Counted from the stretch's first letter, positions 14,628 through 28,931 are shown. The stretch: 64,000 bases of DNA from Candidatus Acidiferrales bacterium (GCA_036513895.1 DATBYF010000048.1:754-64753); one strand, 5' to 3'. Notes: generated by a model from the letters alone, not told the origin. Numbers and translations are program-made.

Positions 14628-15329
14628 ATGCTGAAACTCAGCGCTAAACCGGAACCGATCGAAATTGATCCCGCGAAATCTGCGATCGTCGTGGTCGATA
14701 TGCAGAATGCGTTCGCGAGCAAGGGCGGGACACTCGACATCGCGGGAGTGGATCTATCCGACGCGCCACGCGTGGTCCGTACGATTCGCCGCGTCCTCGA
14801 TGCCGCTCGATCGGTCCGCATGCAGATTGTCTATCTCCAAATGGCCTACAAGCCGGACTTGAGCAACGCCGGAGGACCGCATTCCCCGAATGGCTACAAG
14901 GAACTGGCGATGACGCTGATGCGTTCGAAGCCAGAGCTTAGCGGAAAGCTTCTGACCGAAGGAACGTGGGACAGTAAAATCGTCGACGAACTAGCGCCGC
15001 AGCCCGGAGACCTCGTCGTGGTCAAAACGAGATACAGCGGGTTCGCGAGCACAACTCTCGATTCGCAGCTCCGCGTGCGCGGCATTCGGTATCTGATTCT
15101 TGCGGGCGTCGCGGCGAATGTGTGCGTCGAGTCGACGCTGCGCGACGCCTATTTTCACGATTACTGGCCCATCCTTGTGGCCGACGCCACTATGGCCGCG
15201 GGCGGACAGGCCATTTACGATGCCACGTTGTTCAACGTCGAATCTTTTTTCGGCTGGAGCGTGAAATCGGAAGAGCTGTGCATGGCTCTGTGTGAGCGAA
15301 GGGGACAAGCGGCTCGTGTGGACGGCTGA
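14628..15329 (+). CDS. Isochorismatase-family cysteine hydrolase, RutB-like amidohydrolase
   Basis: Track ORF, 233 aa, with VVVDMQNAF, VVKTRYSGF and ANVCVESTLRD (Asp/Lys/Cys triad context). It resembles E. coli RutB end to end as I recall that sequence. Confidence 0.75.
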   Translation: MLKLSAKPEPIEIDPAKSAIVVVDMQNAFASKGGTLDIAGVDLSDAPRVVRTIRRVLDAARSVRMQIVYLQMAYKPDLSNAGGPHSPNGYKELAMTLMRSKPELSGKLLTEGTWDSKIVDELAPQPGDLVVVKTRYSGFASTTLDSQLRVRGIRYLILAGVAANVCVESTLRDAYFHDYWPILVADATMAAGGQAIYDATLFNVESFFGWSVKSEELCMALCERRGQAARVDG

Positions 15330-17325
15330 CATCGACGTTGGCGGGACGCTCACCGACGGCTTATTCACCGGCGGAAACGAAATCGTTTCCGTCAAAGTTG
15401 ACACGACTCCGCACGACCTGACTTTTTGCCTGTTTGATTGCCTCACGCAAGCAGCTACGAAGCTCGATTTCCCCAACGTTGCTTCGTTTCTCGAAGTGGT
15501 CGAATTGATTCGATGGTCCACGACGATTACGTCGAACGTGTTGGCAGAGCTGCGCGGCCCGCGCATCGGTTTGCTAATTTCGGCTGGCAACGAGACGACT
15601 CTCTACGGCAATGAGCCCTGCACGACGGTCTTGAATCGTCTGATATCTGAACGCGATGTAATTGGACTGAACGGCTCGGCGAGTGACGTTGACGTCATGA
15701 ACGCTGCTCGCGCGCTTCTTGAAAGCGGCTCCCGGCGCATCTGCGTCAGCCTAAAAGGCTCGCACGGAAATCCCGATCGGGAGCTCGCATTCAAGCGAAC
15801 CATCGACCAACAATATCCTGACCACTTCCTGGGGTCCGTGCCGGTTCTCGCGGGTAGCGATATCTCGAAAAGTGCTGACGATCGCACGCGAACATATTGC
15901 GCGCTGATCAATGCCTACACGCATGGGGCATTGGCGGCAACGCTCTTCAAGGCAGAAGATGATCTGCGGGAAACTGCCGGTTATGCCGGGTCGTTCCTCG
16001 TAAGCCACATCAATGGCGGCGTCGCAGGCGTTTCGAAAACCAAGGCGATCGACACAATCGAGTCAGGTCCAGTCCTGGGTATTCTCGCCGGCTCTACTTT
16101 CGCGAAGGCCTACGGATTCCGCGACGCAATCGCGATGGATATCGGCGGCACGACGGCGAAAGTCAGCGTCCTCCGAAATTCCGAGCCGATGTACCGAAAG
16201 CCGGCCGACCTCTTCGGAATTCCGGTCGAGATTTCACTTCCCTACTTGCGCTCGATCGCTCTTGGCGGCGGAAGCGTTGTGAAATCAGTAGGAGACGCTC
16301 GATCTCCCGCTATTCAGCTCGGTCCCGAAAGCATGGGGTCCTATCCCGGCCCCGCGTGTTACGCACTCGGCGGCGATCAGCCCACGCTTACTGACGCACT
16401 TGTTGCGGCTGGGCTGATTAATCCTGAATATTTCCTGGGGGGCACGAAACTCATCGATCGCGAACTGGCTCGCAAAGCCATCCAAGAATCCATCGCGCGG
16501 CCGCTTGGTCTTTCTGTTGAAGGCGCGTGTCGCACGATTATCGGATCGGCGTTCGAGTTGGTGGCGAACGTCATCGCCGGCGCTCACGTTGAACTGAAAC
16601 TCGATTTTTCGAAGTTCCCTCTTTTTGCCTATGGTGGAAATGGAGGCCTTTTTGCCTGCGGCGTCGCAGAAAAGGCCGGGTTGTCGAGCGTCCGGATTTT
16701 CTCGCTTGGGCCTGTATTCAGCGCGTTCGGCTCCTCGGTCTCGGATATCGTCCACGTCTACGAGCGCGCTCTTCCCGCAGAATCGGTTACAGACGCGACC
16801 GCCGCTCGCTTTCGCCAGATTCTCGACGAAATGAAGACCGACGCTGCAAAAGATCTTCTGGGCGAAGGAATCAAGCCACACAATTTGAGTTACACGATCG
16901 AATTTGAAATATCAAGGGACGACCGGCATTCGGTATCTGTTGTCGTTTTAGAGACGGCACTCAGGAGTGCAGAAGAACTGAAAACTGCGCTAACGGTCGC
17001 GGTCACCGCTGCCGGAGAAAATCAGTCCACGCCGGGTATTCTCGAACTTCTTCGAGTGCGGGTACGAAAGGAAATGTCGAAGCCACGACTGACCGAGCTT
17101 GCATTGCAAGGTTCCGATTCTTCCGACGCGCTCATCGGAACGCGCGAAGTTTTCTGGGGCAGCTGTAGCGGCCAGGCAAAAATCTACCGCTGGGAATCTC
17201 TGCTGCCCGGCAATCGCGTGGATGGCTGCGCGATTCTCGAAGGCGTCAATACAACATACTTTGTGCCCGAAGACTGGACGATGGTGGTAGACAGCTATGG
17301 AAATGGAGATTTGAGCCGGCGGTAG
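15292..17325 (+). CDS. Hydantoinase A/oxoprolinase-family subunit (first, divergent HyuA paralog; Apc alpha'-like)
   Basis: Track ORF, 677 aa, with DIDVGGTLTDG and AMDIGGTTAKV ASKHA-type phosphate motifs. An in-frame GTG at 15316 is an alternative start that reduces the overlap with the upstream gene. Confidence 0.8.
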   Translation: MSEGDKRLVWTADIDVGGTLTDGLFTGGNEIVSVKVDTTPHDLTFCLFDCLTQAATKLDFPNVASFLEVVELIRWSTTITSNVLAELRGPRIGLLISAGNETTLYGNEPCTTVLNRLISERDVIGLNGSASDVDVMNAARALLESGSRRICVSLKGSHGNPDRELAFKRTIDQQYPDHFLGSVPVLAGSDISKSADDRTRTYCALINAYTHGALAATLFKAEDDLRETAGYAGSFLVSHINGGVAGVSKTKAIDTIESGPVLGILAGSTFAKAYGFRDAIAMDIGGTTAKVSVLRNSEPMYRKPADLFGIPVEISLPYLRSIALGGGSVVKSVGDARSPAIQLGPESMGSYPGPACYALGGDQPTLTDALVAAGLINPEYFLGGTKLIDRELARKAIQESIARPLGLSVEGACRTIIGSAFELVANVIAGAHVELKLDFSKFPLFAYGGNGGLFACGVAEKAGLSSVRIFSLGPVFSAFGSSVSDIVHVYERALPAESVTDATAARFRQILDEMKTDAAKDLLGEGIKPHNLSYTIEFEISRDDRHSVSVVVLETALRSAEELKTALTVAVTAAGENQSTPGILELLRVRVRKEMSKPRLTELALQGSDSSDALIGTREVFWGSCSGQAKIYRWESLLPGNRVDGCAILEGVNTTYFVPEDWTMVVDSYGNGDLSRR

Positions 17326-17369
17326 AATACGAGACCAAGTCCGGATTCAATTTTTGCGGGAAGGCATAT

Positions 17370-27186: not shown

Positions 27187-28371
27187 ATGCAGAGGCGAAC
27201 GCAAATCGGAATTGTGGGAGCGGGGCCGGCGGGACTGATGCTCTCGCATCTGCTGCATCTACAAGGCATTGAGTCAATCATCGTGGAAAATCGCAGCCGG
27301 GAGCATTGCGAGAGTCGCGTCCGTGCTGGGGTTCTCGAAAAGGGGACGGCTGATTTGCTGGTTGAATCCGGTGTTGGCGAGCGGATGCAACGGGAAGGGC
27401 TGATCCATCACGCGATCTATTTGCGATTCGGCGGTAAAGACCATCATTTGAATTTTCCGGAGCTTACCGGCGGCAAATCCATCATGGTTTATTCGCAGCA
27501 TGACGTGGTGAAAGATTTGATCGCCGCGCGACTTAGAGACGGCGGACAAGTCTTCTTCGACGTTACCGATGTCGCTGTTCACGACCTCTCATCGACCGAA
27601 CCTCGAATCCGTTTCCAAAGCGGGGACGAATCGCGCGAGATTGTTTGCGACTATATTGCCGGATGCGATGGATTTCACGGCGTTTGCCGGCCGTCTATTC
27701 CGGCAGGCGTGTTGCGCGTCTTCGAAAAGACTTACCCATTCGCGTGGCTTGGAATCCTCGCGCAAGTTGCGCCATCGTGCGAAGAGCTGGTTTACACGAG
27801 GCACGAGCGCGGATTTGCCCTCTTAAGCATGCGGTCGCCAGACATTTCGCGACTCTACTTGCAGTGCGATCCGTCGGAGGACATCGAAGAATGGTCAGAC
27901 GATCGCATTTGGGATGAGCTGCGCTTGAGGACCGCGTCGGACAATGGACGGGCTTTAAAAGAAGGGCCGATTTCGCAAAAAGGCATCACGGCGATGCGCA
28001 GCTTTCTGGTTGAGCCCATGCAATATGGCCGCCTTTTCCTGCTCGGAGATGCGGCGCATATCGTTCCGCCGACCGGCGCAAAAGGATTGAACCTGGCCGT
28101 GGCAGACGTGAGAATTTTTGCGCAGGCGCTCGATTTGTTCTATAAACAGGGCCGCGCGGATTTGCTCGAGCGCTATTCGGAGATTTGTTTGCGTCGGGTG
28201 TGGAAAGTGCAGCGATTTTCCTCGTGGATGACGTCCATGCTGCATCGTTCGGATGAAGGCGAGTTCTCCGAGCGGATCCATCTGGCCGAGCTCGACTATG
28301 TGACCAGTTCGCGCGCCGCGTCCACGGCGTTGGCTGAAAATTATGTGGGTTTGCCGTTTGATCCGCTCTGA
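27187..28371 (+). CDS. pobA: 4-hydroxybenzoate 3-monooxygenase
   Basis: Track ORF 27004..28371 trimmed to ATG 27187, giving 394 aa, the canonical PobA length. It reads [34 protein letters not shown] (GxGxxG), with [18 protein letters not shown] near the C-terminal part. Confidence 0.9.
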
Positions 28372-28430
28372 ATGCGTTATTGGACTGAGTAGTTTCAATT
28401 TCACGAAATCACGATACGGAGGGAAATAAC

Positions 28431-28931
28431 ATGCCGAAGACCCAAGCTGAAACCAGTTTGGATGCGGTAGTGCGTGAATATGGCCGACCCGATTGCCATA
28501 TTGGCGGGGGCGAGGATGAATCGCCCTACGTGCCGTTCATCGAGAACGTATACATACGCCACGTATCGTTCGATGTTCGAAGCAATTCGTACGCAAACAT
28601 CTTGTGGGTAAAGAAGGGCGGCATACTCGGGCGGCATCGTCACCGCGGCCCTGTTTGGGCGTGCACGCTCGAAGGAAGCTGGCGCTATCTCGAGTACGAT
28701 TGGGTGGCGCGAGCGGGAAGCTACGTGCACGAGAGCCCGGGCGTGATCCACACGCTCGTCTCCGACGATCCGAACGGCATGAAGACATTTTTCTGGCTGA
28801 ATGGATCGCTCGAGTTTTACGACGAAAACGACAATCTATTGCAAACGCTCGATGTCTTCTGGTTTATAGAACACTATCTGAGCTATTGCCGCGAACACGG
28901 ACTCCAGATCAATCAGAAAATGTTTGTCTAG
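28431..28931 (+). CDS. Cupin-fold protein, 2,4'-dihydroxyacetophenone dioxygenase (DAD)-like
   Basis: Track ORF, 166 aa, with HRHRGPVWACTLEGSWRYLEYDW...YVHESPGVIHTL (His-rich cupin metal site). Size and pattern fit the DAD/ChrR-like cupin family. This is an eye assignment. Confidence 0.5.
   Translation: MPKTQAETSLDAVVREYGRPDCHIGGGEDESPYVPFIENVYIRHVSFDVRSNSYANILWVKKGGILGRHRHRGPVWACTLEGSWRYLEYDWVARAGSYVHESPGVIHTLVSDDPNGMKTFFWLNGSLEFYDENDNLLQTLDVFWFIEHYLSYCREHGLQINQKMFV

Follow-up and report, generated by a model that had tools for sequence, protein, structure and literature searches.

What a soil acidobacterium might do with a predicted ATP-dependent ketone carboxylase that stands beside enzymes of aerobic aromatic ring cleavage is the question raised by a 64,000-nt stretch of DNA from Candidatus Acidiferrales bacterium (GCA_036513895.1, DATBYF010000048.1:754-64753), hereafter the window, whose positions serve as coordinates throughout. 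We analyzed it by listing open reading frames (ORFs), profile searches with Pfam and NCBIfam, searches against solved structures (PDB), BLAST and gene-neighborhood comparison. The ORF listing and profiles resolve a co-directional plus-strand array at 14628-28931 into genes for a hydrolase, five proteins comparable to ApcABCDE, the acetophenone carboxylase (Apc) system of Aromatoleum aromaticum, an acyl-CoA ligase, a thiolase, a thioesterase, PobA and a cupin; from the hydrolase to the thioesterase the genes either overlap or are separated by at most 61 nt. This interval forms the core of a ~26-kb catabolic island (2672-28931) in the genome of an uncultured soil member of the Acidobacteriota. 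Its probable function is to channel 4-hydroxyphenyl methyl ketones, of which 4-hydroxyacetophenone is the prototype, via 4-hydroxybenzoate into central metabolites; we infer the substrate, like all steps of the pathway, from homology and gene context.

The first-pass annotation began the carboxylase with the first ORF of this interval. The four core subunits that it named (HyuA', gamma, HyuA and HyuB) are indeed present in that order, but the ORF at 14628-15329 encodes a RutB-like hydrolase and a fifth, ApcE-like gene at 21963-23021 had been overlooked. Taking the apc locus of A. aromaticum EbN1 as the reference for identities, the plus strand encodes in succession an ApcA-like alpha' subunit (15316-17325, with a GTG start, 669 aa; 42.7% identity; 664 bits with the ApcA model), a small zinc-ribbon ApcB-like gamma subunit (17370-17756, 128 aa; 62.4%; Pfam Acetone_carb_G), an ApcC-like alpha subunit (17753-19873, 706 aa; 60.7%; 1001 bits with 5l9w_B), the ApcD-like beta core subunit (19899-21959, 686 aa; 53.5%; 863 bits with 5l9w_A) and the ApcE-like fifth subunit with a URO-D-like fold (26.8% over 250 aa; ApcE model 75 bits; Pfam URO-D 44 bits). 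According to PMC5214803, Apc can be told apart from acetone carboxylase and from the ATP-dependent hydrolases by the order of the genes, by branch, by the length of the subunits and by signature motifs. The Apc order, apcABCD(E) or alpha'-gamma-alpha-beta-(epsilon), is the one observed at 15316-23021. The lengths of the beta (686 aa; ~670-685 in Apc) and gamma (128 aa; ~128) subunits are likewise those of Apc, and the latter is devoid of the N-terminal extension found in acetone carboxylase.

Assignment to the Apc branch was by ranking of bit scores. The alpha' subunit attains 562 bits with Apc (5l9w_b), against 167 with acetone carboxylase and 171 with an ATP-dependent hydrolase; the alpha subunit attains 1001 with Apc, against 355 with acetone carboxylase and 334 with a 6yra chain labelled 5-oxoprolinase; and the beta subunit attains 863 with Apc, against 156 with the acetone carboxylase alpha subunit and 94 with a hydantoinase-B-type chain of 6yra. 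In profile searches the Apc models of NCBIfam ranked first for all five subunits, with the ApcD model giving 905 bits for the beta subunit, so that Apc scores of 863-905 stand against acetone carboxylase and hydrolase scores of 156 and 133. The comparison with Apc, acetone carboxylase, caprolactamase and oxoprolinase that had been proposed in the annotation thus places the subunits, by score, with Apc and not with the lactamases or oxoprolinases; for the four core subunits the Apc scores exceed the others by a factor of 2.5-7.

All the signature residues named in the structural work on Apc (PMC5214803) are conserved in the window subunits. Both alpha and alpha', the kinase subunits, carry the ASKHA phosphate motifs DVGGTxTD and DxGGT, whereas the KERVDSRG fingerprint (R/KERiDsxG) is confined to alpha; the alpha' subunit retains, along with its ASKHA motifs, the proposed bicarbonate-site residues E248, D274 and K281; the D65, H123, D126 and H148 site is conserved in beta, as are all four cysteines (Cys26, 29, 79 and 82) in gamma. 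The five-subunit enzyme is accordingly of the Apc-branch ketone carboxylase type as judged from sequence, in which the ApcA-like protein is proposed to be the bicarbonate-activating kinase subunit and the ApcC-like protein the ketone-activating one.

The beta subunit has 848 homologs at E<=1e-50, the best 120 of which are at least 80% identical to it; close homologs are very numerous in soil metagenomes, and those bearing taxonomic names belong to Candidatus Acidiferrales or Acidoferrum. For the study of gene neighborhoods we assembled 80 genome loci with 80-97% identity, all from metagenome-assembled genomes, of which 79 carry labels of Acidobacteriota lineages and one (L076) that of Limnocylindrales. 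The apcABCDE order is syntenic in 77-80 of these, with the ApcE-like gene present in 79. Around this core the association becomes progressively looser: a ligase of the feruloyl-CoA synthase (Fcs) type follows apcE in 57 loci, an outer-membrane protein gene lies upstream of apc in 53, the RutB-like hydrolase is found in 44, the thiolase in 41, the thioesterase in 20, the cupin (after the thioesterase or pobA) in 11 and an adjacent pobA in six. The arrangement is more than a product of chance. More telling than the counts are the rearranged loci. The pobA-linked loci fall into at least two clades of the beta-subunit (ApcD) tree, and the linkage to pca genes recurs in a different arrangement in L081, where pcaD-pcaB and pcaG-pcaH flank an IclR-apcABCDE-thiolase-thioesterase-pobA series without the ligase, the hydrolase or the outer-membrane protein.

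A further regularity concerns the gene for CoA activation. Besides the Fcs-type ligase, a ligase of the type of Bal (the CoA ligase encoded after apcE in A. aromaticum) is found in L040 and L063 with 35-36% identity to Bal, while L046, L051 and L052 have a 3-oxoacid CoA-transferase pair after apcE. In L040 the true Bal homolog (35.6% identity) is upstream, and thiolase, thioesterase and pobA follow apcE. Three non-orthologous CoA-activating systems beside one conserved apc core argue that the product of the Apc-type enzyme is a carboxylic acid that needs CoA, which in turn favors carboxylation over hydrolysis as its reaction. In three other loci (L005, L022 and L025) a 509-aa Amidohydro_2 protein is encoded between apcE and the ligase (7504-9033 in L022). 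CouO and HpeF, which are beta-ketoacyl-CoA hydrolases, belong to its superfamily, and the protein may take the place of thiolase plus thioesterase.

The RutB-like gene invites a different interpretation of the complex, namely that it is an ATP-dependent enzyme opening an amide, lactam or ureide in concert with this amidohydrolase, with the ligase, thiolase, thioesterase and pobA as unrelated neighbors. The hydantoinase/oxoprolinase superfamily does hold many ATP-dependent hydrolases, and creatinine degradation pairs N-methylhydantoinase with N-carbamoylsarcosine amidase, an isochorismatase-family enzyme, a pairing that the RutB-like gene recalls and on account of which we retained this explanation. 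The isochorismatase-family cysteine hydrolase in question (14628-15329, plus strand) matches E. coli RutB (8BKD) over its full length (239 bits, residues 2-222) with the Asp/Lys/Cys triad motifs aligned, and scores 282 bits with TIGR03614 (cut-off 378). Its stop overlaps the GTG of apcA by 14 nt and AGGGGA precedes that GTG, and it is apparently translationally coupled to apcA. Still, the hydrolases of the superfamily are two-subunit enzymes, while here alpha', gamma and epsilon subunits are present as well, in the Apc order and with 43-62% identity to Apc in the four core subunits, and alpha' keeps the residues proposed to form its bicarbonate site. Moreover, the hydrolase is absent from 36 of the 80 loci, while a CoA-activating enzyme is found in most of them and has been non-orthologously replaced. 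We therefore regard an amide-opening function as very improbable and take the complex to be a probable carboxylase.

The genes beyond apcE were anticipated in the annotation as a ligase, a thiolase, a hot-dog thioesterase and pobA, and all of these are present on the plus strand in that order. The ligase gene (23035-24975, 646 aa) begins 13 nt after apcE and encodes an AMP-forming acyl-CoA synthetase of the feruloyl-CoA synthase type with Pfam AMP-binding and AMP-binding_C_3 domains; it shows 50-54% identity to annotated feruloyl-CoA synthases and narrowly misses the cut-off of PRK12582 (758.7 bits against 777). The substrates of this family are C6-C3 acids with a 4-hydroxyphenyl ring, such as p-coumarate, whose beta-keto analog is 4-hydroxybenzoylacetate; we propose that the enzyme is a 4-hydroxybenzoylacetate-CoA ligase. 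We rejected the possibility that it is the ortholog of Bal, which is a PaaK-like protein of 464 aa with AMP-binding and AMP-binding_C_2 domains: there is no BLAST match to Bal at E<1e-3 and the C-terminal domain is C_3 rather than C_2. The back end of the island is not orthologous to that of the Aromatoleum pathway, with which the analogy had been drawn. The degradative thiolase (25037-26281, plus strand) clears the cut-off of TIGR01930 (367.7 bits against 240.55) and matches PDB thiolases, being of a general degradative type; it is proposed to cleave 4-hydroxybenzoylacetyl-CoA. The hot-dog thioesterase of the 4HBT type (26339-26767, plus strand; Pfam 4HBT_2 and 4HBT) has as its best solved relative a genuine thioesterase for 4-hydroxybenzoyl-CoA, that of Pseudomonas sp. 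CBS3 (1BVQ/1LO7), to which the match is moderate (E 3e-20, 75.9 bits over ~107 residues). Its GDCDPGG aligns with GDCDPAG of 1BVQ, conserving within GDCDP the catalytic Asp17, the residue marked by the D17N entry 1LO9, and it is predicted to be a thioesterase of the CBS3 type.

Given the similarity of the ligase to feruloyl-CoA synthases, one might instead see in the ligase-thiolase-thioesterase-pobA series a fragment of a CoA-dependent beta-oxidative pathway for hydroxycinnamates (p-coumarate or ferulate) functionally independent of the carboxylase. A beta-oxidative p-coumarate route running via 4-hydroxyphenyl-beta-ketopropionyl-CoA (CouL, CouO) is indeed on record (cited in PMC9618137). However, such a pathway would call for genes that the island is without: neither an enoyl-CoA hydratase/aldolase nor a hydroxyacyl-CoA dehydrogenase gene accompanies the ligase and thiolase there. 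This combination of a ligase and a thiolase without hydratase or dehydrogenase points to entry at the level of a beta-keto acid. Further, the position of the ligase right behind apcE is kept in 57 of the 80 loci, and in L040 and L081 the thiolase-thioesterase-pobA series directly follows apcE with no Fcs-type ligase at all. A stand-alone hydroxycinnamate pathway is therefore scarcely to be expected, and the series is better understood as the continuation of the carboxylase.

The enzymes that follow point to a 4-hydroxylated ring. The pobA gene codes for a predicted 4-hydroxybenzoate 3-monooxygenase of canonical type, with the start placed at ATG 27187 (27187-28371, plus strand, 394 aa) instead of 27004; it scores 606.8 bits with NF006091 (cut-off 351), 552 bits with 7ON9, ~450 bits with the Pseudomonas enzyme (PHBH) and 530.2 bits with TIGR02360, just under the cut-off of 538.7. 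The array closes with a cupin (28431-28931, plus strand, 166 aa; Pfam Cupin_7), to which no interpretation had been given. The best solved relative of this protein is the 2,4'-dihydroxyacetophenone dioxygenase of Alcaligenes sp. 4HAP (4P9G, 5BPX; E 4e-25 over ~139 residues), with RHRH and IHTLV of the window protein aligned to RHYH and GHTLV of 4P9G, i.e. the HxH and the distal His, which we take to be the metal ligands. The dioxygenase (EC 1.13.11.41) converts alpha-hydroxylated 4-hydroxyacetophenone to 4-hydroxybenzoate and formate. The homology makes the cupin an independent pointer to 4-hydroxyphenyl ketones, and the protein is proposed to provide a side entrance to 4-hydroxybenzoate; a hydroxylase gene for making the alpha-hydroxyketone from 4-hydroxyacetophenone was not found in the island. 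Taken together, the thioesterase relative with its Asp17, the Fcs-type ligase, the canonical PobA and the cupin argue for a 4-hydroxyl group on the ring of the substrate.

Onward metabolism would be provided by the pca genes, which occupy 2672-8447 on the minus strand, ~6 kb upstream of the carboxylase array. The annotation had described a full pcaIJHGBDC operon here. The pcaHGBDC part of it stands, with all five genes above their NCBIfam equivalog cut-offs: pcaC for 4-carboxymuconolactone decarboxylase (2672-3064; TIGR02425, 186.4 bits against 155.7), pcaD for 3-oxoadipate enol-lactonase (3083-3928; TIGR02427, 320.3 against 255.85), pcaB for 3-carboxy-cis,cis-muconate cycloisomerase (3867-5234; NF006554, 667 against 595) and pcaG and pcaH for the alpha and beta subunits of protocatechuate 3,4-dioxygenase (5254-5913; TIGR02423, 215 against 126; and 5820-6593; TIGR02422, 339 against 296). 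The start of the pcaD ORF is probably set too far upstream, since the TIGR02427 match begins at residue 33. The two CoA-transferase subunit genes in the positions of pcaJ and pcaI (6590-7381 and 7374-8447, minus strand; Pfam CoA_trans) are, in contrast, divergent from canonical PcaIJ and score far below the PcaJ and PcaI cut-offs (53 and 41 bits against 243.6 and 128.5). There is no pcaF in the pca operon, and the sole thiolase of the cluster is that of the apc array. This enzyme may do the work of the absent PcaF as well, though its scores with PcaF models (~290 bits) are well under their cut-offs (~600).

Assembled in order, the predicted pathway would start with import of the ketone by two proteins encoded upstream, the outer-membrane protein of TonB type and the MFS transporter. 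The ApcC-like alpha subunit would phosphorylate the enol of the ketone and the ApcA-like alpha' subunit would activate bicarbonate, each at the expense of ATP, and the complex would join both activated substrates to give 4-hydroxybenzoylacetate, using neither biotin nor a phenol kinase. The Fcs-type ligase would convert this acid to its CoA thioester, the thiolase would split 4-hydroxybenzoylacetyl-CoA into acetyl-CoA and 4-hydroxybenzoyl-CoA, and the 4HBT-type thioesterase would release 4-hydroxybenzoate, the compound to which the cupin would also lead from alpha-hydroxyketones of the 2,4'-dihydroxyacetophenone type with release of formate. PobA would then form protocatechuate, leaving the rest of the beta-ketoadipate pathway to PcaHG, PcaB, PcaC, PcaD, the CoA-transferase pair and a thiolase. 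The cost of the route would be two ATP for carboxylation and one ATP converted to AMP for ligation, with one thioester discarded.

The chemistry could be the same and the substrate another one, such as acetophenone or the methoxylated ketones acetovanillone and acetosyringone, in which case 4-hydroxyacetophenone would be a side substrate at most and pobA would lie nearby through the general clustering of aromatic genes. The sole characterized Apc does act on acetophenone, pobA adjoins the module in just six of 80 loci, the family of the ligase is named after a methoxylated substrate, and the flanks of related loci carry MetE-like, MTHFR-like and methyltransferase genes (CCoAOMT-like in L078 and L079) that could serve methoxylated aromatics. 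Within the window itself the gene content speaks otherwise: PobA is the only ring-hydroxylating enzyme between 1 and 36 kb, where no gene for a vanillate demethylase or a benzoate dioxygenase was found; the island offers no onward route for benzoyl-CoA or benzoate; and the nearest solved relatives of both the thioesterase and the cupin are specific for 4-hydroxyphenyl compounds. We hence consider a different principal substrate unlikely and retain 4-hydroxyphenyl methyl ketones.

The ketone pocket of the alpha subunit bears on the same point. Phe281, Asn282, Pro285, Ile333 and Thr345 are kept, while Ser takes the place of Gly283 and Lys that of Gln344 in every one of the 82 sequences from Acidobacteriota, against none of the 119 from Proteobacteria. 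Ser283 and Lys344 would fit a more polar substrate, but as evidence this is weak, since two fixed differences in 12 pocket positions are fewer than the background divergence of ~40% predicts and the assignment of the pocket in the Apc structure is itself tentative; for these reasons we downgraded the clade-specific substitutions, which had been considered as strong evidence. A bolder proposal, which we hold to be somewhat less likely than not, is that the Apc clade of the Acidobacteriota forms a second functional class within the Apc branch, a biotin- and kinase-independent carboxylase for phenolic aryl methyl ketones (4-hydroxyacetophenone, i.e. piceol, and possibly acetovanillone), with Ser283 and Lys344 as specificity determinants and the RutB-like protein as a sixth component. 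It would amount to a third bacterial route for hydroxyphenylethanones, mechanistically distinct from the others and borne by uncultured Acidobacteriota that are abundant in soil and peat.

Besides the statistics and the tentative nature of the pocket, several observations weigh against the proposed pathway. All five subunits fall short of their NCBIfam equivalog cut-offs (664 of 1250 for ApcA, 195 of 250 for ApcB, 1071 of 1500 for ApcC, 905 of 1500 for ApcD and 75 of 450 for ApcE), for which reason the enzyme is placed in the Apc branch and should not be named acetophenone carboxylase. That branch has a single characterized member, and the authors of its structure warn that functions of homologs cannot be assigned by transfer (PMC5214803). 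A. aromaticum itself degrades 4'-hydroxyacetophenone by a wholly different pathway that does not involve Apc (PMC4729919). The RutB-like hydrolase is conserved and has no place in the proposed pathway. The frequencies of adjacent pobA (6/80) and of the thioesterase (20/80) are low, and the synteny counts overstate independence, as the genomes are related by shared ancestry. A spacer of 419 bp separates pobA from the thioesterase gene, so that pobA may be a separate transcription unit. Finally, the sequencing runs carrying the locus are soil metagenomes (classed 'DNA?') with no RNA run among them. On the other side, the sequence comparisons proposed with the first-pass annotation all turned out in favor of its pathway as a whole, in which the substrate is likewise deduced.

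The closest known system is apcABCDE-bal of A. aromaticum EbN1, with which the window shares the five-gene order, the identity of the four core subunits quoted above, the zinc-ribbon cysteines, the ASKHA motifs, the KERxDxxG fingerprint, the Asp/His site of beta and the placement of a CoA ligase gene right after apcE. It differs in the family of the ligase, in an ApcE that is only ~27% identical, in the two proposed pocket residues and in the addition of a thiolase, a thioesterase, pobA, a cupin, a RutB-like hydrolase and an outer-membrane receptor; its product would be routed to aerobic ring cleavage and not to benzoyl-CoA. The description of the carboxylation as an anaerobe-style front end was loosely worded, in that A. 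aromaticum degrades acetophenone through Apc with as well as without oxygen (PMC4729919). The wider superfamily, including AcxABC, caprolactamase, N-methylhydantoinase and 5-oxoprolinase, shares the Hydantoinase_A and Hydantoinase_B domains and the ATP-dependent activation of carbonyls. Yet AcxABC has three subunits and the hydrolases two, against five of Apc-like length in the window enzyme, which scores far lower with both. As for the downstream enzymes, the thioesterase shares the fold family and the GDCDP/Asp17 motif with the CBS3 enzyme of the 4-chlorobenzoate pathway, while its context in the window is unrelated to dehalogenation.

In pathway logic the island is nearest to the Hpe system of Rhodococcus rhodochrous GD02 and the Acv-Vce system of Sphingobium sp. 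SYK-6, in which carboxylation of the acetyl group gives an aroylacetate and then a CoA ester, followed by loss of C2, release of the aromatic acid and conversion to protocatechuate by PobA or VanAB (PMC9618137; bioRxiv 2022.04.28.489975). These systems, however, need a phenol kinase (HpeHI/AcvAB), a biotin-dependent carboxylase (HpeCBA/AcvCDE) and a phosphatase, whereas the carboxylase of the island is of the biotin-independent Apc type, and none of the kinase, biotin-carboxylase or phosphatase domains was detected in the region from 1 to 36 kb, where all ORFs down to 90 aa were covered. The island thus shares their logic without being a member.

The known routes for hydroxyphenylethanones employ a Baeyer-Villiger oxygenase, or hydroxylation and dioxygenolytic cleavage, or the combination of phenol kinase, biotin carboxylase and phosphatase. 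To this last, carboxylative kind belong the Hpe system of Rhodococcus, the Acv system of Sphingobium and the MarK system of Novosphingobium. In the literature we found no paper on an Apc-type route to 4-hydroxybenzoate or on Apc in the catabolism of 4-hydroxyacetophenone or acetovanillone, nor any relevant one linking homologs of acetophenone carboxylase to Acidobacteria. What appears to be new is the joining, in an uncultured lineage, of a known carboxylase architecture to an aerobic funnel that is likewise known, by means of connecting enzymes that are not orthologous. Hydroxyphenylethanones such as 4-hydroxyacetophenone, acetovanillone and acetosyringone are plant phenolics and major products of lignin depolymerization. 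If correct, the proposal would add a new route for plant- and lignin-derived ketones, would offer lignin-valorization strains a compact alternative in the form of an Apc front end free of phenol phosphorylation and biotin, and would give a concrete role in aromatic-carbon turnover to a lineage without cultured members that metagenomes of soil and peat show to be very common. The locus contains a complete gene set for testing the pathway.

Between the two divergent arrays, the minus-strand pca operon and the plus-strand array that it heads, lies a gene for an IclR-type regulator of the PcaR/PcaU/PobR family (8366-9286, plus strand; TIGR02431, 317 bits against a cut-off of 284.75), whose true start is probably near 8537, as the TIGR02431 match begins only at residue 58. 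It is followed on the plus strand by the MFS transporter (9293-10564; Pfam MFS_1), which is below all NCBIfam cut-offs including that of the aromatic acid/H+ symporter family model (121 bits), and by a TonB-dependent-type outer-membrane barrel (10855-14241; Pfam OMP_b-brl_4, N-terminal CarboxypepD_reg and TonB_dep_Rec_b-barrel), a probable uptake component. In 29 loci an intact alpha/beta-hydrolase gene comes after that for the outer-membrane protein and ahead of the RutB-like one. The nearest relatives of the window (L001, L002 and L004, with 97% identical ApcD) have it at ~3940-4730, coding for ~241 aa, with the N-terminus MATFVLVHGAWH, which resembles plant methylesterase/SABP2-type hydrolases. 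In the window a deletion of ~720 bp has removed this gene and left a remnant of its first ~15 codons ('MAVFVLF'; 14561-14620, plus strand), detected by blastn and weak tblastn against the relatives.

Few regulatory sequences could be recognized. Scans for promoters and terminators gave counts no higher than in shuffled sequence, and only one element stood out, a GC-rich hairpin (GCGGGTC-CCA-GACCCGC, 24978-24994) with a T-rich tail in the 61-nt gap between ligase and thiolase, which may be an internal terminator or attenuator. The spacer upstream of pobA contains two exact copies of GTCTCGATTAGAA (26828-26840 and 26894-26906), 66 bp apart and found nowhere else in the window, a possible operator or regulator binding site. 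No convincing motif was shared by the intergenic regions pcaI-iclR, transporter-barrel, barrel-hydrolase and thioesterase-pobA. A 301-aa minus-strand ORF at 25877-26782 was rejected as a gene, having no Pfam match and lying antisense to the thioesterase and thiolase genes.

MetE-like (Meth_synt_2) genes are found beside the module in the window (1570-2670, plus strand), in L081 (17021-18136) and in L082 (15607-16611), in varying arrangements, with pcaC as the neighbor in the window but pcaG in L081; a second MetE-like type occurs in 14 loci, seven of which (nine with L059 and L079) also have an MTHFR-like gene and an unannotated 408-aa gene. These MetE-like genes may have a role in C1 metabolism or in O-demethylation of methoxylated substrates. 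The CCoAOMT-like class I O-methyltransferase gene of L078 (11911-12582) and of L079 is located directly after the Fcs-type ligase. A tblastn search of annotated plasmids with the ApcD-like protein returned only distant relatives (<=42% identity) without useful contexts. Two proteobacterial apc operons, those of Hydrogenophaga electricum (L088, 5736-16925) and Pusillimonas (L087, 7602-16153), show a CobW-family GTPase gene after apcE, bal or a thiolase, and a two-component system upstream. The thiolase after bal in Hydrogenophaga, to which the window thiolase is only 24% identical, may be the thiolase that acetophenone degradation requires and that has been called 'so far unknown'.

A second IclR-family regulator (611-1525, plus strand) is encoded ahead of the MetE-like gene, where the island ends on the left, with BhcR-like and KdgR-like models as its top NCBIfam matches, all under cut-off. 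The remainder of the window, from 32 to 64 kb, contains nothing related to the island. The minus strand there encodes a tandem pair of paralogous Ser/Thr protein kinases (32582-38473), both ~960 aa long and furnished with PD40/beta-propeller repeats at the C-terminus, and a tandem pair of RND efflux systems, each made up of an AcrB-type pump and a membrane-fusion protein (38539-47394).

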